The translations under genes were made by a program, and so were the position numbers. The notes under the pieces were generated by a model. It had not been told where the DNA came from, searched no databases, and saw only the letters and a program-made list of their open reading frames with translations. A stretch of 64,000 bases of DNA from Patescibacteria group bacterium (GTDB lineage Bacteria > Patescibacteriota > Saccharimonadia > UBA4664): contig JAQGHG010000012.1 in NCBI GenBank assembly GCA_028288925.1, positions 13,762 through 77,761 on the forward strand. Reading direction: 5' to 3'. The first letter of the stretch is position 1. Every line of letters starts with the position of its first letter. Shown here piece by piece: positions 7,752 to 57,990 of the stretch.

Positions 7752-7859
7752 CGCCGGGGTATTCGTTGGTTAAAGTAGGGGACCTACGATTACTATCACA
7801 CACCATATCGGCCAACTGGTAAATAGTATGGTTCGGATCTTTTTTGTTACTATGTTGGT

Positions 7860-14057: not shown

Positions 14058-14125
14058 CGACAAAAGGGGTAAATTACTTCCTATTTTTAAGCCAGAGAGC
14101 GCAATCTCACATTTTTTGTTATCAT

Positions 14126-16591: not shown

Positions 16592-17470
16592 TTACAGGCG
16601 CTTAAATGACCGCCCGTCCAGTACGATCTCCGAGTGAGGCGGCAGGTTTAGTACCCGCTCGTCGCTCTCGATACCGAGGAACGGATGATCCCGCTCGACG
16701 ACAAACCCGATCCCTTGGTACGCGAACGGCGAGGCCGAAGGGTCGTCTCCGTAGCAATCGTCGACGTCGGTCCATCCCTCGAGCTCCGCGCAGACTTGGG
16801 GGTACAGTGCGACATCGCGGACGATCTCGCACTCGAGGCGCGGGTCGTTTACGATGGGGCGCTCGACAGTGACGGAGGCGAGGAGAACCGGCTGGTTGTG
16901 TCGGAACTCGATGCTTCCATCGGCCGGATATGCCCGGTTCTTGAGCCACGAGACCGTCCAGCTCTGCCTGGGAGTGGCCCAGATCTCGTAGATGGAGAGG
17001 TTCGCTCCCGGAACGTCGCTGTAGAGCGATTTCGTGCGCCTGTTACTCACTTCGATCGTCTCCAGCCGACCGAAGAACGGCGACTGATTGACGGCCGAGG
17101 CGATCAACGCGACGGTGCCCATCCAGCCCGAGTGCATGACCTGCTCGCTTCCTCGTTTCCCGCCTTGCGGGTTGAGAGGGTCGCGAAAGGTCAGACAGAC
17201 CGAGCGGATGAAGTTGCCATCCATGAGCTCGAAGCTCGCGAGCGGCCGCAGGCCCTTGACGGCCGAGCGGAGGTACAGGTACAGCCCTGTAGTGGGGTAG
17301 TACACCGTACTGCGGGGCGGGTCCAACGCGACGAAGTCGCGCTTGCCCTTGAACTGCCCGATTTCGTGGAGTAGAGCCACGACTCGGCAGAATGACCGAC
17401 GTTCTATGGCCCCGAAATAGGGATCGGTCGCTACGTGCGGCCAGATCCACGGGGGCAGCGCAGAAGACAC
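16592..17470 (-). CDS. hypothetical protein (high-GC, foreign-looking)
   Basis: 292 aa; GTG start preceded by AGGAGG; about 63% GC versus about 52% for neighbours; no family recognised. Confidence 0.5.
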   Translation of the reverse strand: MSSALPPWIWPHVATDPYFGAIERRSFCRVVALLHEIGQFKGKRDFVALDPPRSTVYYPTTGLYLYLRSAVKGLRPLASFELMDGNFIRSVCLTFRDPLNPQGGKRGSEQVMHSGWMGTVALIASAVNQSPFFGRLETIEVSNRRTKSLYSDVPGANLSIYEIWATPRQSWTVSWLKNRAYPADGSIEFRHNQPVLLASVTVERPIVNDPRLECEIVRDVALYPQVCAELEGWTDVDDCYGDDPSASPFAYQGIGFVVERDHPFLGIESDERVLNLPPHSEIVLDGRSFKRL

Positions 17471-17597
17471 GGGTCCTCCTGGGAGATTGAACGTACACCA
17501 CGACGAGTGTCGCAGATTTCTTAACTATAACATAAATGCTAGAATTATACAATCTTATGGCGCCCTACCCTCTATGTTTTCAAAATGCAGCCCAAAC

Positions 17598-17724
17598 CTA
17601 CGGGTGGCAGCCCAGGAATATCTCCCCGAGGAAGCGAGTGCGGGTACTGATACCGGTAACACCGAAGAGAAGGATAGCGTTCGCTCGCCCGAGGGGAGGT
17701 ATTCCTGGGCTGACAGGACCCGTA
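17598..17724. repeat. intergenic imperfect-palindromic repeat element, copy A (full length)
   Basis: 5' TACGGGTGGCAG, a 17-bp internal stem (cccaggaatatctcccc/ggggaggtattcctggg), core ataccgg..acaccgaagaga.gatagcgttc, 3' CTGACAGGACCCGTA. Confidence 0.7.
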
Positions 17725-17738
17725 TCCCGAGCGCGGCG

Positions 17739-19484
17739 TTATTCCTTCACCCGTCCATCCGCCAGACACCGCGCATCCGCCGGCTTCCCACTCAGCCGCC
17801 CGGTGATGTCCACAAACGTCATTGGGTTCTCGCGCCCGTCGGCATAGGCGTAGTAGCAATCGGGCAGGTAGGGGAGACTGGTCCCGAAGTAACTGTTGAG
17901 CACCAGCCGAAACACGTTCGCCGAGTCCGCCGCGCCCGCGTCCTTGCTCCAGTCTACCGCCGGAATATGATAGGCCGCCAGATTCCCAAACTTCATTTGC
18001 AGGTCGGCGTCCGTCCATTTGCGCATATCACCGGCCCGTAGCTCACCCTCTACTCTGTCGACGTCGAATTGCTCATGGTTGAGCTGCATTGGGTAGGGCC
18101 CCTCGTCTGCCTGCAGCACCACTATTGATTTGCCCTGGCCGGAGCGGTCAATCTCGCTTAGGATGTCCTTCATTTGGCTATTAATGAACTGCACCTGGCC
18201 CAGATACTTCTGCTTGATCGGCTTGCCGTTATTATCATCACCCGGGTTGGCCGAGACCGAGCCGTCGGCGTTAAAGTTGTAGGGATCGTGCGGCACCAAG
18301 ATATGCGCGAATACAAACCGCCCACCCGCCGGCTTGGCTGCTTCTTGCCGGAGTGTTTGGAGTTGGTAATGGGCCATATCCACGTCGCCCATATTGGCGT
18401 AGCTAAAAGCCGTAAACCCGCCCAGGCCCAGACCCGGCTGCACAAACCGCCACCAGGGGCTCTCGGTCAAAATATTCTTCGAGAAGTTATTCAAAATTAC
18501 ATCAGCATTCATAATGGTCATCCGCCCTGTGCCCTGGTACACCCGGTCGGCCACATCTGACTTATTGGAGGTCTCGTACCAGTTGCCGATCATATCGTAT
18601 GAGTAACCCAGCGATTTCAGCTTTTGGGCGATGGCCGAATTGCGGATGGTCTCATTAAACGGCACAATTGTCTGCCGCGGCGAGGTCCCAAACCGCCCGA
18701 CCAGATCGTTCAAATAATCGGCGTTCATGGTAGAGGCAATCGACATCGTGGTGTAGGGGTAATTATTATGCGCCGACGGGTTCACATAGTAATCCCGGTC
18801 TTTTAAGAAATTCAAGAAGTCCGAATTATCAAAATGAAACTGTTGATTCAGCACGTCCTCGCTGGCGTAGCGGTCAAGCACGATGTAATAAATATCCGGC
18901 GAATCAGCCATCGTCGGCTTGGCGGTAGCCTGGGCCGCGATGTGCGGCGGCTTGTAGAAAAACTGCGGCCATTCCACGGCCAGATCCCACGCTAGCGGGA
19001 CGGCCTTAAAGCCAAACGTCGCGACAATCATAATGAGCAGCGCGATCTGGACATCGCGCTGTTTGCCGACCCAGCGCCGCGCCGCGCCGGCCGCCACCCG
19101 GCCCAACCAGTAGGCGCCAATGCAGGTGAGGCCGATCATCAGCAGGCTGCCTACCACGCCTACCATTCCCACGGGTTCCTTGGGTAAGAAGAGCCAGCCA
19201 TGAATCCACTGGTAGACCGTGTCGAAACGATCGTCGTACTCACCCGAAAGCACCAAGGCTACAAGCACCGCCGCTACGTAACCGCCGAGCTGGTCCCGGC
19301 GCCACACACGGTAAAACCCGGCGCTGATAGCCGTGGCCGTAAGCAGAGTCAAAATTACAGGCACCACCAGGTCTTGGGCGGTTACTTGGTAGCGGTTGCC
19401 CAAGAATGTCGAGATAGGCGACAGCAGCGCCACCATCGCCACCGGCGCCCACAGCTTTAGGCCGGCTGGGAGTCTAAACTTCAT
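17739..19484 (-). CDS. LTA-synthase/sulfatase (alkaline-phosphatase superfamily) membrane protein
   Basis: 5 N-terminal TM helices plus a large extracytoplasmic sulfatase-like domain. Confidence 0.6.
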   Translation of the reverse strand: MKFRLPAGLKLWAPVAMVALLSPISTFLGNRYQVTAQDLVVPVILTLLTATAISAGFYRVWRRDQLGGYVAAVLVALVLSGEYDDRFDTVYQWIHGWLFLPKEPVGMVGVVGSLLMIGLTCIGAYWLGRVAAGAARRWVGKQRDVQIALLIMIVATFGFKAVPLAWDLAVEWPQFFYKPPHIAAQATAKPTMADSPDIYYIVLDRYASEDVLNQQFHFDNSDFLNFLKDRDYYVNPSAHNNYPYTTMSIASTMNADYLNDLVGRFGTSPRQTIVPFNETIRNSAIAQKLKSLGYSYDMIGNWYETSNKSDVADRVYQGTGRMTIMNADVILNNFSKNILTESPWWRFVQPGLGLGGFTAFSYANMGDVDMAHYQLQTLRQEAAKPAGGRFVFAHILVPHDPYNFNADGSVSANPGDDNNGKPIKQKYLGQVQFINSQMKDILSEIDRSGQGKSIVVLQADEGPYPMQLNHEQFDVDRVEGELRAGDMRKWTDADLQMKFGNLAAYHIPAVDWSKDAGAADSANVFRLVLNSYFGTSLPYLPDCYYAYADGRENPMTFVDITGRLSGKPADARCLADGRVKE

Positions 19485-24416: not shown

Positions 24417-26579
24417 ATGATGTATTACTTAGCTCTCTTATCGCTAATGATTGTCGTCACCGCCGACGCCCTCCTGGGACTTGTCGTATGGCTGCAGGCC
24501 CCGCGCCGCCGGTTAAACCGCATATTTGCCCTCCTCACCGCCTCCTTTATGCTCTGGAGCGCGACCAGCTTCTATGATCAGACCGCGGCCGGACCCGAGA
24601 AGCTATCCCTCCTGATGGCCAATATTCCTTTTGTATTCGCGGCCTCCATCTCACTCTTTATGGTTTTATTCTCGCTCTACTTTCCGGAAAACCATCCGAG
24701 CTCCAACATCACCAGGACAAGAGTCACCTGGGGCCTGGCCTTCACTACACCGCCGCTCCTTGTCATGGCCTTTACTAACCTTCTGGTGTCGGGCACCACT
24801 AGCTCGCCCACGCTAGGCAACAACATTGTCCCTGGACCGCTACTGGGTGTATTCTCAATCTATTTCTTGGGCTGGTTAGGATTCGCGTTAGGCAATCTCT
24901 TCTACAAATTTCGTAAAGCCCGAAGTTCGGCCGATCGTTTGCAGCTCAACTATGTCTTTCTGGGCTTCATGCTTACCACGGTCATAGCGTTCACCACCAA
25001 TGTAATCGTTCCTGTGGCCACGCGTAACCCGACTCTAGTACGCTTCGGATTCCTCTCTACGCTCTTTCTCATTGGCTTCATCGGGTATACCATCGCCGCT
25101 CACCGGCTCTTTAATATCCGGCTGTTGGTAGCCCGCTCGGTAGCCTACATTCTCTTGCTCTCCACGCTCACCGCCGTTTACGGTACGGGAATATTTGCGG
25201 TCAGCCGGCTCCTGTTCCCCGATACTGCCATTACCACCGTGGAAAGCAGCCTGTTTGTGGCTCTGGCTATCCTCATCGCCATCACTTACCAGCCGCTACG
25301 CCGGTTCTTCGAAAAAACCACCGACCGCGCGTTCTTCCGCGACCATTACGATGCCCAAATTGTGCTCGACCAGACCGGCAGCATTTTAGCCTCCGAGCTA
25401 TTATTGAAACCCCTGCTCTCCAAGGCTCTTGAGCAAATCTGCCGGCCCATGCGCCTAAGGAACGGACAATTCCTCGTGCTTGACCACGACAAGCTCTACA
25501 CGCGAACCCATTACGGTCCATTGCTCAAGGACGACGTCACGACCGAGCTCATGCAGCGCCTCAAGCAGCCGCTCATCGTCACCGACGAGCTCCAGCCGGG
25601 AGAGCTCAAGGATGCCCTGGGGCGCCTGGGTATCCGCGTCTCGCTGGTGCTCAAGACTCACGATGAACTAGTCGGATATCTATTTCTGGGGGACAAACTC
25701 AGTGGGGAAATCTATTCAAACCAAGATTTGGCCTTGCTCGAAATCCTCCGCAAAGAGCTGGCCGTAGCTATCGCCAATGCCAAAGCTTACGAGGAAATCG
25801 CCCGCTTCAATATGACACTCCAAGAACGTATCAAGCAGGCTACGGCCCGCCTCAGCTCGGCCAACCGCAACCTCAAGGTGCTCGACAAAGCCAAAGACGA
25901 CTTCATCTCCATGGCCTCGCACCAGCTGGGCACGCCGCTGACCGCCATCACCGGTTACCTCTCCATGTCTCTCGACGAAGACAAAGACAATATGACCATT
26001 GCCCAGCGCGAGTACATCACCTTCGCGCTCGAGGCTTCCGAGCGGATGGTGGCCATGTCCGGTGATCTCCTAAATGTATCGCGCCTGAGCTCCGGCCGCT
26101 TCACGATACAGCGCCAACAAGTCGACTTGAACCATCTGGCCGAGCAAGAGGTAAAACTACTTCAGGCGGCGGCCAAGCGCAAAAACCTCACCCTCACCTT
26201 TACCCCCAGCCCCGGCCTCCCCCAGCTCGACATCGACGAGAGCAAGACTCGCCAGGTCATCATGAATTACGTCGACAATGCCATTTATTACACGCCCAGC
26301 GGCAGCATTCACGTAGAGGTGAAGCAAGAAAACGGCTGGGCCGTCTTTACCGTCACCGACACCGGTATGGGCGTGCCGGAGGCCGAACAGGCCAAGCTGT
26401 TTGCCAAGTTCTACCGCGCCGAAAACGCCCGGGCCTCCCGCCCCGACGGCACCGGCCTCGGCCTCTACCTGGCCAAACGCGTTATCGAGGAGCACGGCGG
26501 CGCCATTATCTTCGCCTCCAAAGCCGGCAAGGGGAGTACCTTCGGTTTTAGCCTACCGCTCAAGGCCAACGCCCCGTAG
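24417..26579 (+). CDS. sensor histidine kinase with 7TM receptor-like N-terminus (GAF-like + HisKA + HATPase_c)
   Basis: ASHQLGTPLT H-box and GTGLGL; paralog of 48734..50902. Confidence 0.85.
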   Translation: MMYYLALLSLMIVVTADALLGLVVWLQAPRRRLNRIFALLTASFMLWSATSFYDQTAAGPEKLSLLMANIPFVFAASISLFMVLFSLYFPENHPSSNITRTRVTWGLAFTTPPLLVMAFTNLLVSGTTSSPTLGNNIVPGPLLGVFSIYFLGWLGFALGNLFYKFRKARSSADRLQLNYVFLGFMLTTVIAFTTNVIVPVATRNPTLVRFGFLSTLFLIGFIGYTIAAHRLFNIRLLVARSVAYILLLSTLTAVYGTGIFAVSRLLFPDTAITTVESSLFVALAILIAITYQPLRRFFEKTTDRAFFRDHYDAQIVLDQTGSILASELLLKPLLSKALEQICRPMRLRNGQFLVLDHDKLYTRTHYGPLLKDDVTTELMQRLKQPLIVTDELQPGELKDALGRLGIRVSLVLKTHDELVGYLFLGDKLSGEIYSNQDLALLEILRKELAVAIANAKAYEEIARFNMTLQERIKQATARLSSANRNLKVLDKAKDDFISMASHQLGTPLTAITGYLSMSLDEDKDNMTIAQREYITFALEASERMVAMSGDLLNVSRLSSGRFTIQRQQVDLNHLAEQEVKLLQAAAKRKNLTLTFTPSPGLPQLDIDESKTRQVIMNYVDNAIYYTPSGSIHVEVKQENGWAVFTVTDTGMGVPEAEQAKLFAKFYRAENARASRPDGTGLGLYLAKRVIEEHGGAIIFASKAGKGSTFGFSLPLKANAP

Positions 26580-26656
26580 GTACGGGTGGCAGCCCAGGAA
26601 GAAGGGTAACGTTCGCCGGCCAGAGAAGGAATATTCCGCGGCTGCCAAGACCCGTA
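26572..26656. repeat. repeat element copy C (short form)
   Basis: cccgTAGgtacgggtggcagcc…ggctgccaagacccgta; the kinase stop codon TAG lies inside the element. Confidence 0.65.
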
Positions 26657-27655: not shown

Positions 27656-28522
27656 TTATGGCAATAATATATCAATCGAAATCATCGCGCTGAACCCGAG
27701 CAGTACGATCAGCGAAAACCGAAAGAGCCCCCGCGCCCACACCGCGTCGTCCTTGGCGCGGAAGCCTTTTATGGCTCGCTGTAGCCACATCGCACTCAGC
27801 ACCAGCATTACCGCCAGGTAGGTATAGCCGGTGTAGCCGGCCACCGTCAGCGCCGCCACCGCCGCCATGAAGGCCACGATATACACCAAGATCTGAATCT
27901 TCGCGGCGCGCGGGCCGTACTTCACCGGCAGCACCGGCAAGCCCGCCGCCGTGTAATCCTTGAGCCGGTACATGGCGATGGCGTAGAAATGCGGCATCTG
28001 CCACAGGGTCAAAATCACAAACAAGAGCAGCGCGCCGCCGTCAAACTGGCCCGTCACCGCGCAGTAGCCCACCACCGGCGGCACCGCGCCCGAGATGCTG
28101 CCCACCAGCGTCCCGTGCACCGAACGGCGCTTAGCCAGGCCGTAGAGGACCACGTACACCACGAACCCCACCAGCGCCACACCCACCGTCAGCATATTCG
28201 TCCATAGCGCCAACAACCCAAAACCCAGCAAGCCCAGCACGCTCGCGTAAATCAAAGCATTACGCCCCGGGATCGAACCCTTCGCCAGCGACCGGTCCTT
28301 GGTCCGGGCCATCTTCCGGTCCAGGCCCCGGTCAATGTAATTATTAAAGACACATGCCCCGGCCATCACCAGCGATATACCCGCCAACATGCCCACCAAT
28401 AGCCCCGCGCTAATATGCCCGCGCGAAGCCAACAAAAACCCGGCCGCCGCCGTAATGGCATTGCCGTAAATAATCCCCGGCTTGGTCAGCCGGTAGTACC
28501 GTTGGATTGTCTTAGGGATCAC
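27656..28522 (-). CDS. cyoE: protoheme IX farnesyltransferase (heme O synthase)
   Basis: UbiA-family motifs; last gene of the cyo operon. Confidence 0.85.
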   Translation of the reverse strand: MIPKTIQRYYRLTKPGIIYGNAITAAAGFLLASRGHISAGLLVGMLAGISLVMAGACVFNNYIDRGLDRKMARTKDRSLAKGSIPGRNALIYASVLGLLGFGLLALWTNMLTVGVALVGFVVYVVLYGLAKRRSVHGTLVGSISGAVPPVVGYCAVTGQFDGGALLLFVILTLWQMPHFYAIAMYRLKDYTAAGLPVLPVKYGPRAAKIQILVYIVAFMAAVAALTVAGYTGYTYLAVMLVLSAMWLQRAIKGFRAKDDAVWARGLFRFSLIVLLGFSAMISIDILLP

Positions 28523-28884
28523 TTATGCACACCCTCGTCCTTAATGATGAACGTATCAGTCTTATCCGGCGACATCATGTGGTAGTCCAAATTCTTCATG
28601 ATCCACAGTGAGCCGCCCACCACGATCGTCACCACCATCAGCGCGAACAAAAACACCGTCAGATTCCAGCGCGGCTTCGACTCCCGGCCCAGATGCAGGA
28701 AGAAAAACAATTGCACCATCAGCTGGATTACCGCCAGACCCACCACCGCCCCGATCAGCACGCGGTGCGACAGCCAGGGGTGTTCACCGGGAAGGTGCTG
28801 CGCCACAACAAAATATGCCCCCAGCGTCAGCAGTACCGACAAGACAAACCCCACCACATACGAAGTCCGCGTGCCCGTGTTCAT
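28519..28884 (-). CDS. cyoD: cytochrome o ubiquinol oxidase subunit IV
   Basis: [13 protein letters not shown]…; 3 TM; ATGA overlap with cyoC; RBS GGGAG. Confidence 0.75.
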
Positions 28885-29450
28885 ACCTGTATTGCTCCCA
28901 TCAAGTACACAATTGTGAAGATAAAGATCCAGATGACATCCAGGAAGTGCCAAAACAAGCTCAGCAATGTCAGCCGCCGGACCGTAGCGGTCCCCAGGCC
29001 GCGGCGCAGCACCTGGATCATCAGCACGGTCATCCATAGCAGGCCGGTAGCGATATGCAGACCGTGCGTGCCCACCAGCGTAAAGAACGCCGAGAGGAAT
29101 CCGCTGCGTTGCCAGCTATTGCCCTCGGCAGCCAGGTGGGAGAATTCCGTGATCTCCATGGTGAGGAACGCGACGCCCAGCAAGAACGTCAGGCTGAGCC
29201 ACGTCAGCACTTGGTTGCGCTTGCCTTGGTGGGTGGCCAGTATCGCCAGGCCGGCGGTGAAGCTGCTGGTGAGCAGGATCAGCGTCTCGGCCAGTACAAA
29301 CGGCATGCTGAACAGCTCATGAGCGCCCGGTCCGCCAAACGTGTTGTTGTGCAATACCGCGTAAGTCGCGAAGAGGCTCGCGAACAATACGCAGTCGGTC
29401 ATAAGATATATCCAGAAACCCAGTGTTACTTTTGAATCTGGCTCTGTCAC
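28881..29450 (-). CDS. cyoC: cytochrome o ubiquinol oxidase subunit III
   Basis: Typical CyoC sequence (…[14 protein letters not shown]…). Confidence 0.9.
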
Positions 29451-31441
29451 GCGGCTTCCTCCACCTTAGCGGCGGGGATCGTATATTCACTGTCGTCCGT
29501 GGAAGTCCGAATGATGATAGTGGCGATCACCCCCAATAGTCCCACCACTGCCAACCACCAAATGTGCCAGATCACGGCGAACCCAAGGACAAACGCGAAA
29601 CCGGCCAAGATAATACCCATCGCCGAATTCTTGGGCAGCGCGATGTCGGTATAATGCGGTTTTCGCCCTCCCGAAGCCTTCTTTTGTTTACTTGCCCAAA
29701 ACGCGTCCCGCTCAGTCACGGCGTCCAGCGTGGCGAAGTTGTACACCGGCGGCGGAGAAGTAGTAGACCACTCCAGTGTCCGCCCGCCCCACGGGTCGCC
29801 GGTCATGTCCAGGTTCTCCTTGCGTCTCCATACGCTCACGATCATTTGCAAAATCTGGAACCCGATACCGAGGCCGATCACACACACTCCCACGCCCGCC
29901 ACGATAAATAGTCCCCGCCAGCCCGTAGACGGCTCATAGTGGTCCAGCCGCCGCGTCGCGCCCATCATTCCTAGGATATACAACGGTACGAACGCCAGCA
30001 AAAACCCGGTCAGCCAGCACCAAAAGGCGTACCGGCCCAGCCGCTCATTGAGCCGGAAGCCAAAAATCTTGGGGAACCAGTAAGTGATCCCGGCGAACAG
30101 CCCAAATATCACGCCGCCGACGATCATGGTATGAAAGTGCGCCACCAAGAACAGACTATTATGCAGCTGGAAGTCCACCGACGGTACCGCCATCAACACG
30201 CCGGCCATGCCCCCAAGGGTAAACGTCACTACGAAGCCCAAAAACCACAGCATCGGCGTGGTAAAACGGATTCGCCCCCGGTACATCGTAAACAGCCAGT
30301 TAAACACCTTCACGCCTGTCGGAATCGCGATTACCATCGTCATAATGCCGAAGAAGGCGTTCACATTGGCCCCGGCGCCCATCGTGAAGAAGTGGTGCAG
30401 CCAGACCAAGAACGACAAAAAGGTAATCGAACCCAGCGCCCACACCATCGACTTGTAGCCAAACAGCCGCTTGCTCGAGAACGTCGCTACCACCTCCGAA
30501 AACACCCCAAAGGCTGGCAAAATCAGAATGTAGACCTCCGGGTGCCCCCACGCCCAGATCAAGTTGACGTACATCATAGGATTGCCCCCGAAGCCGGAGG
30601 TGAAGAAGTGCATCCCCAGAGTCCGGTCCAGCGCCAGCATCGCCAGCGTAGCCGTCAAGATCGGGAAAGCAAAGACCACCAGCACCATGGCGTTGAGCAC
30701 CGACCACACAAACATCGGCATCTTCATCATGGTCATGCCCGGCCGCCGCAGCTTCAGGATCGTCACCAGGAAATTGACACCCGAGAGCAAGCTTCCCACG
30801 CCCGCGATCTGTAGACTCCAGATCCAATAATCCACCCCCACACCGGGGCTATACCGCAGCTCCGATAGCGGCGGGTACGCCAGCCAGCCGGTGGCCGCGA
30901 ATTCACCCACCACCAGTGACACATTCATGAGCACGGCACCCGCGACGTACAGCCAAAAACTAGCCGAGTTCATAAAAGGGAACGCCACATCCCGGGCGCC
31001 GATCTGTAGCGGCACCACCAGGTTGATCAGGCCAAACATCAGCCCCATCGCCACGAAGAAAATCATAATCGTGCCGTGCGCCGAGAAAACCTGCTGGAAC
31101 GTATCGGCCGACAGCACGCCGTGAGACTGGCCCACCGATAACACCTGCTGCGCCCGCATCATGGCGGCATCGGTCGCGCCGCGCAGCAGCATCAAGAACG
31201 CCACGGCGATGTACATCACACCGATCTTCTTGGGGTCGAGCGAGGTCAGCCACTCACGCCACAGCCACTTCGCGCGGCCCAGGATCCAGCCCCAGCGCTT
31301 GAAGTATGTGAGGGCCGCCACCGCCAGCAAACCACCCAGAGCCCCCATTACGGCGGTCGCGAGCAGCATCACGCCGGTAAAACCGTCATGTTTCAGCGCG
31401 TTAAGCGTCAATAAGCCCAGTGCGTTGCCAAGAAAGATCAT
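29447..31441 (-). CDS. cyoB: cytochrome o ubiquinol oxidase subunit I
   Basis: Heme-copper oxidase subunit I, 664 aa, with conserved His ligands. Confidence 0.9.
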
Positions 31442-32328
31442 CGCGTTACCATTCCGGGCATCGGCGTCATATAATTCATCACCACCTCATCATACAGACC
31501 TTCGGTTACGAATGAGTAATAGCTGGGCGGATTATTTTGGCTAGGCTTGGCCAAAGCCTGGTACGCGCCGTGGTCCAGATGGTGGGGCGACCGCTCGACC
31601 GACTTCGTCCAAACATCAAATTCGGCCCGTGGCACCGACTTGGCCGTAAACTTCATCCCCGCGAACCCCGCCCCGCTCAAGTTGGCCGACGAGCCGTCAA
31701 AGCTGCCGGGGGAGTCTGCCATCAGGTGCAGGTGAGTCGTCATGCCGCTCATCGCATAAATCTGGCCGCCCAGCTGGGGAATCCAAAATGAGTTCATCGG
31801 CGCGTCAGACGTGATCTCAAAATTAACCGGCGTACCCTCGGGAAACTCCACCATGTTCACGCTCGCGATATGCTGCTCCGGATAAATAAACAGCCATTTC
31901 CACTGCAGCGCCACTACCTGGATCGTTATGGGCTTCTTGTCGGACGCCAGAGGTTTGTAGGGGTCCAGCTCGTGGGAACTTTGCCAAGTAATGACCGCTA
32001 GCCCCACGATAATGGCGGTAGGAACGGCCCACCAAGTAAATTCCAGAACCCGGTGGTGGTCCCAGTCCGGCGCGTACTTCGCCTTAGTGTTACCGGCCCG
32101 GTACCGCCAAGAAATCACGAATGTCAGGATGAACACCGGGATCACCACGATCAGCATCAGCAGTGTGGCGGTTATCATGAGGCTACGCTCTTTGAAGGCT
32201 ATCAGGCCACGTGGATTAAGCACGGCTATGTCGTGGCCGTGCAGCAACTTCACGAGTAACACCGCCACTCCGAGACCGAGCAGAATCACAAGACCAAGCT
32301 TGAGCAATTTATTCATCAGATAAGGCAA
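31438..32328 (-). CDS. cyoA: cytochrome o ubiquinol oxidase subunit II
   Basis: Quinol-oxidase subunit II fold with 2 TM and a periplasmic domain. Confidence 0.85.
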
Positions 32329-32355: not shown

Positions 32356-33573
32356 ATGATTATATCTGACATGACTCCCAACTCACAGCGAAAAGCCCAT
32401 GTACTCGTTATCGGCGGGGGATTTGGTGGTATCCGGGCCGCCCAAAAGCTCGCCCGGCAGCGAGGCGTGAGCGTTACGCTCATCTCCGCCGAAGACAGCT
32501 TCGCCTACTACCCGCAGTTGTACCACGCGGCCACCGGCGGTGTGCACACCGAGTCGGCTATTTCGCTGACCGAGTTGCTGGGTGGCCGCGGCATCGAGGT
32601 GGTGCGCGACACCATTACGGCGCTCGATCCCGAAGCCCGCACCGTCACCGGCGCCGGCGGCGAAGCCTACCATTATGATGAGCTTATCCTGGCGCTCGGC
32701 AGCGTCACCAATTACTTCGGTATCGATGGTCTCGAAAAATTCGCCTACAACATCAAATCCATTGATGGGGCCGAGCGCTTCAAACAGCACTTGCACAAAC
32801 AGCTCGTGGAAGACCACCAGGCCGACCCCAACTATGTCGTGGTAGGCGGCGGTCCCACCGGCGTCGAGCTGGCAGCCGCTCTGGGCCAATACCTACGGCG
32901 CATCATCAAGCTGCACGGACTGGCCAAGCCCAATTTTCAGATTGAACTCATCGAAGCCGCCCCGCGCCTACTACCGCGCTCGCCCGAATCGATGAGTGCC
33001 CGGGTACAGCGCCGCCTCGAAAGCCTGGGCGTGAAGGTCATGACGGGCGCCACCGTCCAGGCCGAGACCGCCGGCGCTCTCCAGGTCAACGGCCGGCCCA
33101 TCAATACCCATACCGTCGTCTGGACCGCTGGAGTAGCCAATAATCCCTTCTTCAAAGCCAACGCCGCCCACTTCAAACTCGCCAAAAATGGCAAAGCCGA
33201 GGTCGACAACCACCTCCAAAGCCAACCCCACATCTACGTGATCGGCGACAACGCCGCCACACCCTACACCGGCATGGCCCAGACCGCCCTCAACGACGCC
33301 GATTACGTCGCCGCCGACATCGTCCGCGCCCTCCACGGCCACGACCGCCCGGCCTACCATCCCGCGGCGCCCATCAGCGTCATCCCGGTGGGGGAAAACT
33401 GGGCCGCAGCGGAATGGGGGCGCGTCTTGCTCTACGGCTACATCGGCTACGTCCTGCGCCGCTTCGCCGACCTCATCGGCTACGCCGACGTCGAAAGCTG
33501 GCCCCGAGCCTTCAAGATTTGGATCCAAGACACCCGCCGCGAAGACAACTGCCTGATCTGCGAACCCAAATAG
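32356..33573 (+). CDS. ndh: type II NADH:quinone oxidoreductase (NDH-2)
   Basis: Two GxGxxG dinucleotide folds (VIGGGFGG, VVGGGPTG); 405 aa. Confidence 0.8.
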   Translation: MIISDMTPNSQRKAHVLVIGGGFGGIRAAQKLARQRGVSVTLISAEDSFAYYPQLYHAATGGVHTESAISLTELLGGRGIEVVRDTITALDPEARTVTGAGGEAYHYDELILALGSVTNYFGIDGLEKFAYNIKSIDGAERFKQHLHKQLVEDHQADPNYVVVGGGPTGVELAAALGQYLRRIIKLHGLAKPNFQIELIEAAPRLLPRSPESMSARVQRRLESLGVKVMTGATVQAETAGALQVNGRPINTHTVVWTAGVANNPFFKANAAHFKLAKNGKAEVDNHLQSQPHIYVIGDNAATPYTGMAQTALNDADYVAADIVRALHGHDRPAYHPAAPISVIPVGENWAAAEWGRVLLYGYIGYVLRRFADLIGYADVESWPRAFKIWIQDTRREDNCLICEPK

Positions 33574-35484: not shown

Positions 35485-37908
35485 ATGAATACCGATACCA
35501 CCGGCCTCACCAGCCGCGAAGCCGCCAAACGCCTCAAGCACTACGGCCCCAACACCCTCGCCGAGGTCAAACGCCGCCCGGCTGTCTTGGCGTTCCTCTC
35601 GCGCTTTACCAACCCGCTCGTCATCATCCTGATGCTGGCCGCCACGCTCTCGGCCTTCCTCGGCGACCGGCTGAGTTTCATTATTATCATCGCCATCGTG
35701 CTCGTGAGCACCGTGCTCGATTTCTTCAACACCTTCCGCTCCGAGAAGGCCGCCGAGGCCCTCAAAGAGCGCGTGCGGGTAGAGGCCGAGGTGTTGCGCG
35801 ACCACAAGTGGGTGGCACTACCGCTCCGGGCGCTCGTGCCGGGCGACATCGTCAAGCTCCAGGCCGGCAAGCTCATTCCGGCCGACGGCGTCGTCGCCGA
35901 GGGCAAGGACCTCTATGCCAACGAATCCTCGCTCACCGGCGAGTCCTTTCCGCAGCCCAAGCCCCCGGCCGCCCCGCTGTATCTGGGCGCCAGCATCACC
36001 AGCGGCTCGGGCACCATGCGCGTCACCCATACCGGCCACGCCACCAAATTCTCCCACCTCGCGCATGCCCTCTCCGCTCAAGACCAGCCCACCGAGTTTG
36101 ACCGCGAGATCAAAGACTTCAGCCTGCTCATCATCAAGATCACCACCTTCCTGGTGATCGTCATCTTCACCTTCAATCTCTTCTTCCGGCACGATCTGCT
36201 GTCGTCATTGCTCTTTAGTGTGGCGCTGGCCGTGGGCCTCACGCCCGAGCTTCTGCCGCTCATCATCACCCTCAACCTCACCAAGGGCTCTCTGGCCATG
36301 GCCAAGCACGGCGTCATCGTCAAACAGCTCTCGTCCATCCAAAACCTCGGTTCCATGGACGTGCTCTGCACCGACAAAACCGGCACGCTCACCGAGGACC
36401 ACATCGCCCTCATCCGCCATGTCGACGGCTTCGGCGCCGAGTCCAGCAAGGTTCTGCTCTACGGCTACCTGGCCAGCGTCTACACCACCGGCTTCGAAAA
36501 CCCGCTCGACAAGGCCGTCCGCACCTTCAAGACCGTCAACATCAAAGGCTACCGCAAGCTCGACGAGATCCCCTACGACTTCGAGCGCAAACGCGAATCC
36601 GTGGTGGTGGCGCACGGCGACAGCCGCCTGCTCATCAGCAAGGGCGCGCCCGAGGAGATCATGCGCATCAGCCACCGCTACGCCGACGGCCGGCCCTTCG
36701 AGGCCGTCAAAGCCGAAGTCCAGGCCGAATACGACTCCCTCAGCGCCGAAGGCTTCCGCGTGCTGGCCGTCGCCATCCACCATGTGCCGCCCACCCATGG
36801 CACCTATGAGCCCGGCATCGAGCACGATCTCACCTTCGTCGGCTTCATGGCCTTCCTGGATCCGGCCAAGCAATCCGTCCGCTCCACACTCGAGCGCATC
36901 CTCGAGTACGGCATACAGGTCAAGATCGTTACCGGCGACAACGCCCTCGTCACCCGCAAGATCGCCAACGACATCAACCTCGAAGTCACCGGCATTCTCA
37001 CCGGCCCGGAAATCGAGCGTATGAGCCAGACCAAACTCCGCGAGGCCGTTGAGCGTACCACCATCTTCGCCCGCGTCAATCCCGAGCAAAAGCTGCGTAT
37101 CATCGAGACGCTCCGCCACAACCATCACGTCGTGGGCTACCTCGGCGACGGCATCAACGACGCCCCCGCCCTCAAGGCCGCCGACGTCGGCATATCCGTC
37201 AACAACGCCGTCGATGTCGCCCGCGCCACCGCCGACCTCATCCTGCTGCGCAAATCGCTCGACAGCCTCATCGAGGGCGTCATCGAAGGCCGCCGCACCT
37301 ACGCCAACACCCTCAAATACCTCATGATGTCGCTCGGCTCCAACTTCGGCAATATGTTTAGCATGGCCGGCGGTTCGCTGTTTTTGCCCTTCCTGCCCAT
37401 GCAAGCCACCCAAATCCTCCTCACCAACCTGCTCTACGACAGCTCGCAATTCGCCCTGCCCCTCGACGGCGTCGACGCCGACAGCCTCAAGCGCCCTCGC
37501 CGGCTCAACATCGCCACCCTCAAGAAGGCTATGTGGGTCTTCGGCCCCCTCAGTTCCATCTTCGACTTCGCCACCTTCGGCGTGCTTATCCTCGTGTTTC
37601 ACCTCAACGCCGCGTCCTTCCAAACCGGCTGGTTCCTCGAATCCGTCGCCACCCAAACCTTCGTGGTCTACATTATCCGCACGCGCCTCATACCGTTCTT
37701 CCAGAGCCGTCCCAGCCCCTATCTGGTGCTGAGCACTCTCGCCACCGTCGCCCTGGGTTACTACCTGGCGCTCAGCCCGCTGGGCAGCTACTTCCACTTC
37801 GGGCCGCTTCCCCTGAGCGCCTTCCTGGCCATCCTCGGCATCGTCGTGGCCTACCTCTTCTCCGCCGAGATCGTAAAGCGCCAATTCTTCCGCCGCGTCG
37901 ATCTGTAG
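35485..37908 (+). CDS. cation-transporting P-type ATPase (MgtA/PMCA-like, P2/P3 type)
   Basis: DKTGTLT phosphorylation motif, a TGES-like motif, and GDGINDAPALKAADVGI. Confidence 0.85.
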   Translation: MNTDTTGLTSREAAKRLKHYGPNTLAEVKRRPAVLAFLSRFTNPLVIILMLAATLSAFLGDRLSFIIIIAIVLVSTVLDFFNTFRSEKAAEALKERVRVEAEVLRDHKWVALPLRALVPGDIVKLQAGKLIPADGVVAEGKDLYANESSLTGESFPQPKPPAAPLYLGASITSGSGTMRVTHTGHATKFSHLAHALSAQDQPTEFDREIKDFSLLIIKITTFLVIVIFTFNLFFRHDLLSSLLFSVALAVGLTPELLPLIITLNLTKGSLAMAKHGVIVKQLSSIQNLGSMDVLCTDKTGTLTEDHIALIRHVDGFGAESSKVLLYGYLASVYTTGFENPLDKAVRTFKTVNIKGYRKLDEIPYDFERKRESVVVAHGDSRLLISKGAPEEIMRISHRYADGRPFEAVKAEVQAEYDSLSAEGFRVLAVAIHHVPPTHGTYEPGIEHDLTFVGFMAFLDPAKQSVRSTLERILEYGIQVKIVTGDNALVTRKIANDINLEVTGILTGPEIERMSQTKLREAVERTTIFARVNPEQKLRIIETLRHNHHVVGYLGDGINDAPALKAADVGISVNNAVDVARATADLILLRKSLDSLIEGVIEGRRTYANTLKYLMMSLGSNFGNMFSMAGGSLFLPFLPMQATQILLTNLLYDSSQFALPLDGVDADSLKRPRRLNIATLKKAMWVFGPLSSIFDFATFGVLILVFHLNAASFQTGWFLESVATQTFVVYIIRTRLIPFFQSRPSPYLVLSTLATVALGYYLALSPLGSYFHFGPLPLSAFLAILGIVVAYLFSAEIVKRQFFRRVDL

Positions 37909-37917
37909 CCGGAGCCT

Positions 37918-37946
37918 AGAGAGCCTACGGCTGACAGGACCCGTCC
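37918..37946. repeat. repeat element copy E (minimal form: termini only)
   Basis: cctagagagcctacgg directly joined to ctgacaggacccgt; 10 nt after the ATPase stop. Confidence 0.55.
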
Positions 37947-45845: not shown

Positions 45846-45965
45846 TCATTTACTATAGCCTAATTTCCAGACCCGAACCAAGCGTCTATTCGCGGTATGT
45901 GGGAGATAATCTAACTTATTAGGCTATTTTTTGTTATTATGCCTATTGTAATAGCCATACTATAA

Positions 45966-47516: not shown

Positions 47517-48679
47517 TGAAAGGAATACACAACAACATGACCGCTCCCATAATTCTGCTTGAAGGCCACTACACAGAGACCGAGCTAAGCCAACTCAAAA
47601 ACGAAAAAATCTGGAATTTCAAAGACATATATCAACCTCAACTCACTGAGCTCTTTGAAATCTTAAACGCCCAGCTGATCGGTATGCCGGAGTTTGAGGG
47701 CAAGCTCAAAGAGTTTATCGCCGAGAGATCAGTCCCCAAGTCGGAACTAAGAGGGAATTACGTCTATTACCCGTGGTCGGGTCTTTTGCTCCACATGGTC
47801 AACGAAGAGGAATTAAATATCCTTCGCACAAACCGTACAAATAACCTGATTACCCGCGACGAGCAAAAGAAACTGGCCAAGTTTAGCGCCGGAGTAGCCG
47901 GCTTGTCGTTCGGTAACGGCATTGCTCTCTCTCTAGTGTATAGTGGCATCGCTAACACCATTAAAATCGCCGACCGCGACATCTTCGAAACCACTAACCT
48001 GAACCGAGTTCGAGTCGGCCTTCCGAGCGTGAATGAATCTAAGCCGGTCGTAACTGCCCGGGAGATCTATGAAATCAATCCTTATGCCGACATTTCCATA
48101 TATTCCGATGGGATAACCACCGAAAACATTGATTCCTTCATTGGGGGAGACACAAAGCTAAACGTTGTTTTCGATGTGGTCGACAGCTTCGCCATGAAAG
48201 TACGGTTGCGGCTGGCAGCCAAGCAGGCCAAAGTTCCAGTGATTATGCTCACCAGCCTGGAAGATAGCATTCTCGTTGACGTGGAGCGCTTCGATCTCGA
48301 TCCTTCTGCCGAAATATTTCATGGATTACTCGGCGGCGTGACAGATGACCTATTGACAAAAGAAATGACCGAGCAGGACAAGGCCAAATATGCAATGGCA
48401 ATTGTCGGTCCAGAACACGTTTCCTACCGTAATCTCTTGTCGCTCTCGAACATTGGTAAAAGCCTGGTTTCGCGCCCCCACCTGTACGGAACAGTCAGCA
48501 TTGTTTGCGGCTTAGCCTCTTATATTGTAAAAAGAATCGCCCTCGGCGAAGACATGCCGAGCATGCGAACCCATGTGGCATTCAATGAAGTACTCGGTAT
48601 TTTGCCTAATAAAGACGACACGCCTCAGGCTAGAGAAACCATATTGTCCCAATTGATGCGGAATTCAGCCAAAAATTAG
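47501..48679 (+). CDS. ThiF/MoeB/E1-like adenylyltransferase with about 125-aa N-terminal extension
   Basis: Gly-rich loop AGLSFGNG, DRDIFETTNLNRV (matches DxDxVxxSNLNRQ) and VFDVVDS; no CxxC motifs. Confidence 0.7.
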   Translation: MDDKIMKGIHNNMTAPIILLEGHYTETELSQLKNEKIWNFKDIYQPQLTELFEILNAQLIGMPEFEGKLKEFIAERSVPKSELRGNYVYYPWSGLLLHMVNEEELNILRTNRTNNLITRDEQKKLAKFSAGVAGLSFGNGIALSLVYSGIANTIKIADRDIFETTNLNRVRVGLPSVNESKPVVTAREIYEINPYADISIYSDGITTENIDSFIGGDTKLNVVFDVVDSFAMKVRLRLAAKQAKVPVIMLTSLEDSILVDVERFDLDPSAEIFHGLLGGVTDDLLTKEMTEQDKAKYAMAIVGPEHVSYRNLLSLSNIGKSLVSRPHLYGTVSIVCGLASYIVKRIALGEDMPSMRTHVAFNEVLGILPNKDDTPQARETILSQLMRNSAKN

Positions 48680-50902: not shown

Positions 50903-51293
50903 TAACAAACTCATCCTCATCGCCGAAGACGATCCGTTCATCTCGCGCATGTACCAGATCAAGCTCGAAAGCGGCGGCTACCGCGTGATCGTCAAGAATA
51001 ATGGCCGCGATGCCTTCGAAGCCATCAAGGGCGAGCACCCGGATCTGGCCGTCCTCGACATCAACATGCCTGAGCTTTCGGGCCTAGAAGTGCTGGCCGC
51101 GCTCCAAACTGACGGGTTCGACTTCGATTCCATGCCCGTCATCGTACTCACCAACTCCTCCGAGCTGTCCGATCGCAACAAGGCCCATTCCTTCGGCGCC
51201 GAATACCTGGTGAAGGCCGAGCTCACCCCGCGCGAGGTCCTCAACCTCATCGGCGCCAAGCTTAACCCCGCTCCCGAAGCCGAAAATGCCTAA
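50883..51293 (+). CDS. response regulator, receiver domain only
   Basis: LIAEDD…AVLDINMP…K; 20-nt overlap with the kinase. Confidence 0.85.
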   Translation: MADPKPDNKLILIAEDDPFISRMYQIKLESGGYRVIVKNNGRDAFEAIKGEHPDLAVLDINMPELSGLEVLAALQTDGFDFDSMPVIVLTNSSELSDRNKAHSFGAEYLVKAELTPREVLNLIGAKLNPAPEAENA

Positions 51294-51474
51294 ATTTATC
51301 GAACCAATCCTGGTGGCGGCGCTGGTATTTACCGGTACCTTCTTGGGACTGCGCGCGATCGAGTGGCTCTACCATCGCCTGCGCCACACGCCGGATTGGT
51401 CGCCACACTGGGGATCGTGGCTGTTCGCGCTGCTGCTGGCGGTGTACGCGCTCGTCAACAACCTCGGCCGTTAA
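51286..51474 (+). CDS. small membrane protein (62 aa, 2 TM)
   Basis: 8-nt overlap with the response-regulator stop. Confidence 0.35.
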   Translation: MPKFIEPILVAALVFTGTFLGLRAIEWLYHRLRHTPDWSPHWGSWLFALLLAVYALVNNLGR

Positions 51475-51485
51475 TAATTGACTTA

Positions 51486-51565
51486 TACCGAAGACTCCAT
51501 CCCGGCGGGACATGGAGCTGCCAGGACCCGTGCGATTCGAAAACGGCCAAGATCCGTTCCCTACG
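51486..51565. repeat. repeat element copy F (inverted orientation, rearranged)
   Basis: ataccgaagact…gctgccaggacccgtg…cctacgg; the deacetylase stop (cta at 51561-63) lies inside cctacgg. Confidence 0.5.
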
Positions 51566-52649
51566 GCAATATTAGCGCGTCCCGCACCCGCCGCAGCGTA
51601 AACTCCGAGCCCGGATTCTGGTACGATCCCGGCTGCACCGTCACCGCCGTTTGGTAGCCGGCGTCCCGCGCGATCTGAATGCTCGTGGCATTGTAGGCGC
51701 CGTAGGGATAGGCGAAATGGCGTATGGTGTGGCCCAGCTTGTCTTCTAGCGCCCGCTTGCCGTCGGCGATCTCAAACCGTTGCTCATCGGCCGGTAAGGT
51801 CGCCAAGTTGCGGTGGTTCACCGTGTGGCCGCCGATCTCGATCAGCCCGCTGTGGTCCAGCTCTCGCACCTGGCTCCAGTTCATATAGGCGTCACCGCAG
51901 CCACCCGGCGGCTGCAGTGGGTCGTTGTACCGCCGCCCCGATCCGATACACCATTGGCTGGCCGCGCCGCTGGTGATGATATAAAACGTCGCCTTCATAT
52001 TATGCCGCCGCAATATCTCAAAGGCCTGCATTTGATTCGCAAAGCCGTCATCATAAGTAATCACCACCGGCTTGGCGGGGAGTGAGCCACCGTTGAGGCC
52101 GGACAGCGCCTCATCCATGGTGATGGTGGTATAGCCCCGCGTCTGCAGATGCGACAATTGCTGTTCGAAATTGGCCGGTGTGTAGTGATAGAGCAAAATC
52201 GGAATGGTAAGCCCGCCCGACAGATTACGCGCGGAATTATCAGCTGAGACCGGCTTGGAGGCCGCGACCGTACCGCCCTTTAGCTCGAAGTTCCAATTGG
52301 CCAGCGACACCCGTAAGTTTTTGATGTCAGCCTTGGCGCGATGAAACTGGCCACTGGCGGCGTCCAATTGCACCCGCGAAAGCTGGCTTTCCATCTCGTG
52401 CTCGCTCACGATCTGAGCCCCGGCGCGTCTCTGCGCGCGCTTAAACTCACCCACCGACTGTACCAGCGAAGCATACTGCGACCGGAGCTCGGGAGGATAA
52501 TTTACGTTATGAGAAAAACCGGCCGACGCCTGAGGAAGAGCCGCCACCACGGCCAACCCGCTAGCCACGAAAACCGCCAAAACCCCCGCGAACACCGAAA
52601 AACGCAAAGCCTTAGTATTACCAAAGCCCTTATCTATCCATTTCTTCAT
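51561..52649 (-). CDS. polysaccharide deacetylase (NodB domain) with TM and coiled-coil N-terminus
   Basis: Paralog of 3672..4865 (VVITYDDGF, HTVNH, FAYPYG). Confidence 0.8.
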   Translation of the reverse strand: MKKWIDKGFGNTKALRFSVFAGVLAVFVASGLAVVAALPQASAGFSHNVNYPPELRSQYASLVQSVGEFKRAQRRAGAQIVSEHEMESQLSRVQLDAASGQFHRAKADIKNLRVSLANWNFELKGGTVAASKPVSADNSARNLSGGLTIPILLYHYTPANFEQQLSHLQTRGYTTITMDEALSGLNGGSLPAKPVVITYDDGFANQMQAFEILRRHNMKATFYIITSGAASQWCIGSGRRYNDPLQPPGGCGDAYMNWSQVRELDHSGLIEIGGHTVNHRNLATLPADEQRFEIADGKRALEDKLGHTIRHFAYPYGAYNATSIQIARDAGYQTAVTVQPGSYQNPGSEFTLRRVRDALILP

Positions 52650-54871: not shown

Positions 54872-55717
54872 ATGAAGATCCTCCTCACCGGCCCGGCTCG
54901 CGTCGGCAAAACTACCCTCTTCCGAGAACTCACTCTGGCGGCTCCCCAGGCCTTCTGGGTCGTAACCGAGCGCACTCACGACGCGCAGGGGATCCGCACC
55001 GGCTTTAAGGCCGTCAACTCACTGGGTGGCGAGGAAATTATCGACCGGCGCGAAGACCTCAAACCCGATGTGCCCATGGGCAATCACCACGTCGACGTCG
55101 CGGCTATCGACCGGCTCTTCTCGACACCCATCCAGAAGGCGCTCAAAAACCACGCGCCCCTGCTGCTCATCGACGAAATCGGCCGCATCGAGCGCTATTC
55201 GCCGCGCTTTATCGAAGCAATCGACCAAGTCTTTACCAGCCCTGTCCACATTATTGCCGTCATTCATCTCAGCGATGATTGGGCGGAACTCTACAAATCC
55301 CATCCCGACGCCCTTACGCTCACACTCTCGGCCGGAAACCGCGACCAAATCCATGACGCCCTCACTTCCATCGTGGCCGCGCTGCCGCTCTTTGATCAGC
55401 TATCTGCCAAGGACCAGGCCGGCGTTCAACACTTCGCCCAATCATATGCCCAAAATAGCCAATTTATTCTACTCAAAAAGCTTTTCAAAAACGCCGTTAC
55501 GTATCTGGCCGATGGCCGGCTCCATCAGGTCGACGACCGGCATTACGCCCTCCAGGGGCTTACCAATAGCCACCACATCGAGCTGTTGCCGGATCATACA
55601 TGGGCCTGCGATTGCGACCTTTTCCATGGCCGGGGCAAGTTTGCCGGGCAGGCGGGGGAGTGCTCTCATATTCAAACGATTAAGGTTTCTGCCGGCCTGT
55701 TCGAGTTCGGCGACTAG
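54872..55717 (+). CDS. P-loop NTPase (THEP1-like) fused to C-terminal SWIM zinc finger
   Basis: MKILLTGPARVGKTT Walker A, LIDEIG Walker B, C-terminal WACDCD…(17)…CSH (CxCxnCxH). Confidence 0.6.
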   Translation: MKILLTGPARVGKTTLFRELTLAAPQAFWVVTERTHDAQGIRTGFKAVNSLGGEEIIDRREDLKPDVPMGNHHVDVAAIDRLFSTPIQKALKNHAPLLLIDEIGRIERYSPRFIEAIDQVFTSPVHIIAVIHLSDDWAELYKSHPDALTLTLSAGNRDQIHDALTSIVAALPLFDQLSAKDQAGVQHFAQSYAQNSQFILLKKLFKNAVTYLADGRLHQVDDRHYALQGLTNSHHIELLPDHTWACDCDLFHGRGKFAGQAGECSHIQTIKVSAGLFEFGD

Positions 55718-55782
55718 AGCCTACGGGTGGCAACACCGAAGAGACGGATAGCGTTCACCACTCGCTATCCGTCTACCATCTG
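55716..55782. repeat. repeat element copy D (5' half + core with its own hairpin)
   Basis: ctagagcctacgggtggcaacaccgaagagacggatagcgttcaccactcgctatccgtct. Confidence 0.6.
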
Positions 55783-57854: not shown

Positions 57855-57990
57855 GACCCGTAGGTACGGGTGGCAGGAGTGAAATATATCTCCGAACAAG
57901 CGGACGCTGGTGCAGATACCGGCTACACCGAAGAGACGGGTAGCGTTCGGACGCGTGAGGAGATATGTTGCACGCCTGACAGGACCCGTG
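57855..57990. repeat. repeat element copy B (full length)
   Basis: gacccgtaggtacgggtggcag…gtgaaatatatctcc…ataccggctacaccgaagagacgggtagcgttc…ggagatatgttgcac…ctgacaggacccgtg. Confidence 0.7.

Follow-up and report, generated by a model that had tools for sequence, protein, structure and literature searches.

Six repeat loci at gene ends in the window

The window is a 64-kb stretch of DNA from a soil Saccharimonadia (Patescibacteria, candidate phyla radiation) MAG. A first-pass annotation had placed copies of one imperfect-palindromic repeat at six loci in it. We read the sequences at all six, and each carries the described repeat; the family is real. Two copies (A and B) are intact and four (C, D, E and F) are decayed. 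All six lie on the + strand, with copy number and orientation counted on this one 64-kb stretch of the source genome. The copies and their parts are listed here.

Copy A, 17598..17724, + strand: full length, 127 nt; covariance-model match of 120 bits, E = 4e-28
Copy A, + strand, terminal inverted repeat: TACGGGT 17599-17605 / ACCCGTA 17718-17724
Copy A, + strand, arms of the long stem: 17608-17627 / 17693-17712
Copy A, + strand, inner stem P2: GCGAGTG 17634-17640 / CGCTCGC 17682-17688
Copy A, + strand, conserved apical core: 17641-17681
Copy B, 57857..57990, + strand: full-length element at 57864-57990; covariance-model match of 113.5 bits
Copy B, 57857-57864, + strand: leading 3'-end remnant, CCCGTAGG
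Copy B, + strand, stem arms: 57874-57893 / 57959-57978
Copy B, 57908-57947, + strand: core
Copy C, 26573..26656, + strand: internally deleted; covariance-model match of 20.3 bits, E = 0.012
Copy D, 55714..55774, + strand: 3'-truncated; covariance-model match of 21.5 bits, E = 0.006
Copy E, 37916..37944, + strand: fused termini, from an exact 14-mer and flank comparison
Locus F, 51487..51569, + strand: composite of fragments

ORF positions and a codon-usage coding score confirmed that all six copies are 0-20 nt from a stop codon. Copy A is antisense to both of its neighbour genes and lies 14 nt from the stop of one of them, a sulfatase-like gene at 17739-19484 (-). Copy B sits between two convergent genes, with a gap of 3 nt to the stop of 57994-59100 (-) on one side and of 41 nt to that of the FtsX/MacB permease gene 56537-57823 (+) on the other. 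Copy C abuts or overlaps the end of the histidine kinase gene 24417-26579 (+), the TAG stop of which falls within the CCCGTAGG of the copy. The gaps are 4 nt for D, which adjoins the NTPase gene 54872-55717 just past its stop, 17 nt for E, beyond the stop of the P-type ATPase gene 35485-37908, and 11 nt for F, which is flanked by a small membrane ORF at 51286-51474 (+) and a convergent polysaccharide deacetylase gene at 51561-52649 (-).

Some genes around the copies are duplicated. Two histidine kinase genes (24417-26579 and 48734-50902) are paralogous, as are two MacB-type ABC ATPase/permease pairs (52726-54851 and 55827-57823), and DNA stretches of these paralogs are 71-85% identical. Copies C, F, D and B are downstream of or between them, and a copy from another assembly (L010, see below) is inside an orthologous ABC ATPase gene. 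Three spurious ORFs, 17487-18041 (+), 17536-17847 (+) and 58004-58261 (+), cross A or B into the antisense of neighbouring genes. Their coding scores are negative, and they are likely to be gene-calling traps that arise from the stop-free frames of the element. Gene callers can be misled by the repeat, with spurious ORFs across A and B and with real genes extended in L010.

A (17599), B (57865) and C (26581) carry the 5' motif of the family, TACGGGTGGCAG, without a mismatch, and D (55722) matches it at 11 of 12 positions. In E the described motif holds in part only, as TACGG is present and the rest of TACGGGTGGCAG is absent. A, B and E have a perfect 3' motif, CTGACAGGACCCGT, which C matches at 12 of 14 positions and F at 13 of 14. 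At two mismatches or fewer, CTGACAGGACCCGT has five matches in the window against 0.33 expected, and none of 100 shuffles reached five. The 28-nt core GG.AACACCGAAGAGA.GG.TAGCGTTC that had been noted in A and B is also found in D. A and B are just 75% identical across 125 aligned nt, and near-identical copies, which would be a sign of recent movement, were not seen. Every copy had been described as one long hairpin. This is true of A (-73.5 kcal/mol, z = -7.7) and B (-58.6 kcal/mol, z = -4.6), but C folds poorly (z = -1.4) and D forms a different hairpin.

The decayed copies make up a series of internal deletion (C), truncation with foldback (D), fusion of the termini (E) and a composite (F). 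Copy C starts with a CCCGTAGG remnant and the 5' end TACGGGTGGCAGCCCAGGAA, which is the same as in A. Of the core it keeps the 3' portion, GAAGGGTAACGTTCG, and beyond this come a degenerate arm on the 3' side and CTGCCAAGACCCGTA. It shares a 20-nt exact match with A, and its segment CGTTCGCCGGCCAGAGAAG is identical in a copy from another assembly (L009). In copy D, which nhmmer detected with the core alone (E = 1e-6), the 5' end TACGGGTGGCAA (55722-55733) is fused straight to the core piece CACCGAAGAGACGGATAGCGTTC (55734-55756), and an inverted core piece, CGCTATCCGTCT (55763-55774), creates a new 12-bp hairpin (-27 kcal/mol, z = -4.4). The 3' half of D is replaced, at 55742-55774, by an inverted 12-nt core duplicate (AGACGGATAGCG / CGCTATCCGTCT) that looks like the product of a template-switch or foldback repair event. 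Copy E, in which TACGG (37926-37930) is joined directly to CTGACAGGACCCGT (37931-37944), is read as a hairpin-deletion remnant. Locus F starts with the core piece ACCGAAGA (51487-51494) and a short hairpin, CTCCAT/ATGGAG, and goes on to the 3' end CTGCCAGGACCCGT (51518-51531), a second partial 3' end, GGCCAAGATCCGT (51545-51557), and a partial 5' end, TACGGCAA (51562-51569). F had been called inverted and rearranged; it is rearranged, being a composite of element fragments, but not inverted, as the fragments read in direct, + orientation. It escaped both the covariance model and nhmmer and is the weakest of the six loci.

Some bases are shared beyond the originally described ends. CCCGTAGG precedes both B and C, and CTAGAG(AG)CC precedes both D and E. 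Moreover, 3'-end remnants sit immediately upstream of the 5' ends in B, C and F. The covariance model run over the whole window with filters off found no additional copies; a match at 52983-53068 (-) coincides with an ABC ATPase motif and was taken as chance.

Structure and conservation of the full-length element

The full element is about 127 bp long. Its terminal inverted repeat is 7 bp and genome-specific, with TACGGGT...ACCCGTA plus CAG / CTG in the window and CGTAAAGGG / CCCTTACG in L003, a copy on a soil metagenome contig; these repeats, short as they are, vary from one genome to the next. Conserved bases follow at the stem foot, GGCAG / CTGACAGG in the window and G(C)AGAGG / CCGCAGC in other assemblies. 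Above it, a long stem of about 20-25 bp has a copy-specific sequence with its complementarity kept, and a 7-bp inner stem, GCGAGCG / CGCTCGC, covaries to GUCGGCG / CGCCGAC in L003. The apex of about 45 nt (..GCCGGTTCTGATAYCGGYTWCACCGAAGAGAYGGRTAGCGTTC..) is almost invariant across all assemblies and is the most conserved part of the element. The frame '..ASAGxDxGxTEExxSVR..' is stop-free in A, B and two copies from other assemblies (L004 and L002). In L003, an extra segment of about 24-28 nt (GAAGGGAGGTGGCGTAGCCACAT, ~958-985, - strand) with its own hairpin, GUGGC/GCCAC, lies inside the otherwise invariant apex.

Compensatory change between the stems of A and B had been proposed, and a wider comparison bore it out. 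In the six full-length copies, which come from five assemblies, 15 of 35 pairs are changed at both positions, where shuffles give 7.1 +/- 1.7 (none of 500 reached 15) and slid-alignment controls 4-8, and 89% of pairing cells are paired against 78% in shuffles; these counts, like the wobble counts that follow, come from just six sequences, and the model used to align them was built on these same six. The inner helices of the apex, P3 and P4, never vary and so give no covariation support either way. In L002 the core is about 90% conserved although the stems have lost their complementarity, a possible sign that the core is under some constraint separate from the hairpin.

The transition-type mismatches in the aligned helices are asymmetric. 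G·U and U·G together number 20 (14 without one invariant pair), against two for A·C and C·A, and a binomial estimate for 14 versus 2 is p ~0.004. The + strand fold is stabler than the - strand fold in all six copies. Because G·U is tolerated on the + strand and A·C is rare, pairing appears to be selected in the single-stranded + strand, as RNA or ssDNA. The orientation of the copies relative to host transcription is mixed, with A and two outside copies (L005 and L009) antisense. These antisense copies suggest that selection acts on the propagating form and not on each insertion in place.

Copies in other assemblies and insertions inside genes

A search for further copies had been suggested, and outside the window we found seven, in other Saccharimonadia assemblies. 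Scanning 185,579 species genomes for the core pattern gave two matches, both in uncultured Saccharimonadales MAGs (L001, L002), and scanning JGI metagenomes gave three soil contigs (L003-L005). We then built a covariance model (R1) on six full-length copies, to which it gives 102-123 bits. C and D are weak matches to R1, and it picked up extra copies at two groEL-linked loci of relatives, L010 (63.7 bits) and L009 (31 bits). The earlier note had allowed that the window copies might be the only ones and belong to one duplicated segment; they are instead members of a family found at unrelated loci in at least seven assemblies.

The sulfatase-like protein beside A is 100% identical to one from a Patescibacteria MAG at NCBI (tags JWN01_), and its closest relatives are only about 60% identical and annotated as Saccharimonadia. 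R1 found no copies in 57 kb around orthologs of the sulfatase (L006-L008). About 124 kb around groEL in relatives (L009-L015, L019, L020) holds only the L009 and L010 copies, and the groEL neighbourhoods of L013-L015, L019 and L020 are free of the element. An nhmmer search of all loci with the core alone gave nothing new. The core pattern was absent from viral contigs, and blastn of A against phages and plasmids gave no match. No Rfam 15 family reached its gathering score at the repeats, and relaxed E-values at A and L003-L005 gave noise only; the sole Rfam or ARAGORN match in the window is a tRNA-Glu (UUC) at 63574-63648 (-). In the literature searched, no such repeat is described for Saccharibacteria or CPR. 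The window has four model-detectable copies and two fragments per 64 kb, about one per 10 kb. Overall the family is patchy and rare, with an expansion in the genome of the window.

Four of the seven outside copies are within genes, and the reading frames stay open. In L002 the whole element is in-frame in the gene for LigA (NAD-dependent DNA ligase), and, compared with the 1b04 ligase structure, it adds about 56 residues between positions 100 and 108, which are 7 residues apart there. In L009 the core is antisense yet in-frame in a MutY-like glycosylase gene, with about 44 residues added relative to 8uuc. The L010 element is an in-frame C-terminal extension of an ABC ATPase that reads through the element as ..EQASAGSDSGTAEERERVRERE.. 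and makes the protein 321 aa long, against 231 aa in a 78%-identical ortholog. Compared with L013 and L015, this gene is longer by about 265 nt; the element accounts for about 120 of these, and no target-site duplication is visible. The extra segment is absent from homologs or orthologs of all three proteins. In L001, the core is in the disordered tail of a 608-aa membrane protein.

A presence/absence comparison of orthologous sites had been suggested, and one could be made at the groEL 3' site. In L005, about 130 nt including the element, in antisense, separates the groEL stop from a conserved TGTGCAGGTA and terminator. L010 and L019, with GroEL about 90% identical, have a 19-20-nt spacer only, and in L009 and L013 the terminator is preceded by 25-30 nt. 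L005 has a 5-bp TTAGG direct repeat, the sole candidate for a target-site duplication; it may belong to the element, and the empty sites are too diverged to define breakpoints. At the junctions of A-F, no shared direct repeat and no target-site duplication was evident. A Pfam search of about 50 window genes found no transposase, integrase, reverse transcriptase or HUH (IS200/RAYT-type) protein, and no autonomous element with matching ends was found.

Nature of the element and comparison with known repeats

The first-pass annotation had offered a structured RNA or a MITE/REP-like element under structural constraint. This is supported, and the in-gene copies, the empty orthologous sites and the deleted or fused remnants favour the mobile-repeat half of it. 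The repeats are probably a non-autonomous palindromic mobile repeat family of soil Saccharimonadia that resembles MITEs and, most closely in its behaviour, the Rickettsia palindromic elements (RPEs). A candidate for the mobilising enzyme is not among the about 50 window genes searched, and the element is previously undescribed.

RPEs are palindromes of about 100-150 bp that are intergenic or in-frame in unrelated housekeeping genes; their open frame encodes a conserved peptide, no transposase is known for them, and their host has a small genome (PMC10969869). Within proteins, RPE inserts are reported to form surface loops. The Saccharimonadia element is likewise a palindrome of this size, found between genes and in-frame in unrelated housekeeping genes that stay open; it has an open frame for a conserved peptide, no known transposase and a host with a small genome. 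However, the host phyla are unrelated, and the likeness seen is one of behaviour. The Saccharimonadia copies are also mostly intergenic at gene 3' ends, with four in-gene copies so far, and combine an invariant apex with copy-specific arms. ERIC, or IRU, of enterobacteria is an imperfect palindrome of about 127 bp near gene ends, with internal-deletion size variants, a copy number that varies strongly with lineage and occasional intragenic copies (PMC10969869). Our element shares the length of about 127 bp, the intergenic position near gene ends, the internal deletions, the uneven copy number between lineages and some intragenic copies. It differs in host phylum and has no sequence relationship to ERIC (blastn against plasmids and phages was empty), and whereas ERIC is fairly uniform along its whole length, the stems here differ with compensation.

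The element is also similar to MITEs (Correia/CREE, Chunjie, QMITE2), being small, non-coding, bounded by terminal inverted repeats and hairpin-forming, with multiple copies and truncated derivatives. It shares a preference for 3' untranslated regions with QMITE2 (PMC10969869). At 127 nt, with six plus seven loci and no consistent ORF, it falls within the size and dispersal of MITEs (50-500 bp, non-coding), and TACGGGT / ACCCGTA plus CAG / CTG are its terminal inverted repeats. It differs in that the inverted repeat is just 7 bp plus CAG/CTG and that no parent IS with matching ends was found; the one candidate target-site duplication is the TTAGG repeat at L005. The Saccharimonadia element is RPE-like in behaviour and has most, not all, of the features that define a MITE.

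The position at gene ends could also mean that the repeat is a host-beneficial cis-acting RNA hairpin of 3' UTRs, an exonuclease block, terminator or attenuator that is selected in place, and for REP and ERIC such a host-beneficial 3'-UTR role has been proposed. In favour of this, every window copy is within 0-20 nt of a stop codon and five of them have the same sense as the gene before them, the wobble pairs are on the + strand only and the folds are very stable. However, A is antisense to both neighbours, L005 is antisense and lies between groEL and groEL's own intrinsic terminator, and L004 is upstream of a divergent gene. No copy is followed by a U-tract, a terminator scan was empty at A and B, four copies are within coding sequence, and relatives do without the element at the same sites. 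This reading is thus unlikely. The copies might instead be independently transcribed sRNA genes with a conserved functional apex and a variable stem. Such a family would explain why an invariant apical domain is closed by covarying helices and why G·U is favoured on one strand, and convergent genes directly adjoin A, B, L003 and L005 on the 3' side. We nevertheless regard it as very unlikely, because A and B have no + strand promoter upstream, copies lie within the LigA, MutY-like and ABC ATPase genes, truncated and fused remnants exist, Rfam gives no match, and P3 and P4, being invariant, add no covariation support.

The in-gene copies raise the further idea that the core is a protein-coding module shuffled between genes, with the intergenic copies pseudogenised. 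Three of the four in-gene copies are read in the same frame, which is stop-free in the four copies named above, and some codon differences are synonymous (GCG/GCC/GCT, GGT/GGC). But the peptide profile matches no protein among 5.8 billion, L009 reads the opposite strand, second codon positions vary as often as third, the frame is broken by stops or frameshifts in L003 and L005, a start codon is missing from the intergenic copies, and coding would leave the complementary arms unexplained; a shuffled module is extremely improbable. A mobile element of another kind, a REP/REPIN-type repeat moved as an ssDNA hairpin by a RAYT (HUH Y1 transposase) encoded elsewhere in the genome, has more to recommend it. 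Like REPs, the copies are extragenic palindromes at gene ends; there is a GTAG at or beside the 5' end (CCCGTAGG / CCTACGGG), a target-site duplication is not seen, as in HUH elements, and recognition of a single-strand hairpin is likely to be a common feature. The strand-specific wobble asymmetry fits an ssDNA mechanism, as does the uniform + orientation of the six copies in a stretch of uniform GC skew. Yet conservation is reversed, as REPIN arms are conserved around a variable spacer and here the arms vary around an invariant apex. The element is a much longer, single 127-nt hairpin and not a pair of 20-40-nt REPs at high copy, its density is low at about one per 10 kb, and the window has no Y1_Tnp (RAYT) gene. 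The + strand is also C-rich, and a lagging-strand-template model under conventional skew predicts otherwise. Mobilisation by a RAYT is therefore quite unlikely.

Several other identities were considered and rejected. Integron attC sites have R''/R' sites (RYYYAAC ... GTTRRRY) and occur in promoterless cassette arrays with intI nearby. The ends TACGGGT / ACCCGTA contain no GTTRRRY, no integrase is encoded in the window, and the copies are set apart by many ordinary genes on both strands. An intrinsic terminator was rejected since neither strand has a T-run after A or B and L005 is upstream of a separate canonical terminator, and a DGR VR/TR system since the window has no reverse transcriptase and the copy differences are not adenine-specific. 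A hammerhead-like CUGAUA...CGAAG did not hold, as B has CAGA and the essential G8/A9 positions misfit. A + strand promoter of A's own was sought in TACAAT at 17548-17553, but seen from the - strand this is TTGTATAAT and most likely belongs to the gene 16592-17470 (-). The stem arms were also considered as anti-phage guides; five 20-21-mers gave one exact match and one 18-mer gave two, which is the chance level. The match of the 20-nt 5' stem arm of A is at 3250-3269 of L016 (IMGVR_UViG_3300010137_000084), without extension on either side. This 3.96-kb contig is levivirus-like and encodes coat and maturation proteins and an RdRp with the motif YGDD. Five other arm searches gave nothing above chance, so the match is probably a coincidence.

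If the repeats are a non-autonomous mobile family, the element would propagate as a hairpin folded from its single + strand, in the form of either ssDNA or RNA. A trans-acting enzyme encoded outside the window might recognise it by the invariant apex and the conserved base. The compensated stems could then result from selection on active master copies, each insertion being a snapshot of one master; this would account for why the antisense copies A and L005 still show + strand wobble. Insertions may persist mainly just past stop codons, where they would leave the promoter of the following gene intact. At gene ends or in surface linkers, the stop-free frame would keep the gene open at a cost of about 40-60 residues, more at the C-terminus of the ABC ATPase. 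A role at the host level, such as stabilising mRNA 3' ends, would be secondary. We also considered that the apex of about 45 nt is itself an active RNA or ssDNA module, enzyme-recruiting or catalytic, that drives its own copying. This is very improbable; if true, CPR would have a class of mobile hairpin not seen before, mediated by RNA or ssDNA and working without a conventional transposase, and it would offer a handle on the long-open question of how gene-inserting RPE-like elements move.

A mobile family of this kind would mean that selfish palindromic DNA persists in the small genomes of CPR/Patescibacteria. The element can lengthen essential proteins (DNA ligase, MutY-like glycosylase, ABC ATPase) apparently without breaking them, a behaviour best known from Rickettsia. 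The invariant apex, the compensated stems and the one-strand wobble are targets for finding the mobilising factor, and the element could serve to mark strains in soil Saccharimonadia.

Two further features of the window were noted. A T-rich motif resembling an extended -10, TTTTTGTTACAAT, occurs six times at two mismatches or fewer, against 0.62 expected, and 0 of 100 shuffles reached this number. Its sites are as follows.

2594-2606, + strand: TTTTTGTTACAAT site
7841-7853, + strand: TTTTTGTTACAAT site
14113-14125, + strand: TTTTTGTTACAAT site
45928-45940, + strand: TTTTTGTTACAAT site
59785-59797, + strand: TTTTTGTTACAAT site
48524-48536, - strand: TTTTTGTTACAAT site

ATG codons at 7860, 14126 and 59804 are just 6-8 nt after the motif, which suggests leaderless mRNAs made from a shared promoter type. 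The second feature is a haem-copper quinol/cytochrome oxidase set at 27656-32328 (-), with COX2 carrying COX_ARM, COX1 and COX4_pro. An ORF at 28881-29450 lies between COX1 and COX4_pro, and a UbiA-family prenyltransferase in the set may be a haem O synthase. An NADH-dehydrogenase-like Pyr_redox_2 gene (32356-33573) adjoins the set, and together they are aerobic respiratory equipment in a Saccharimonadia MAG.
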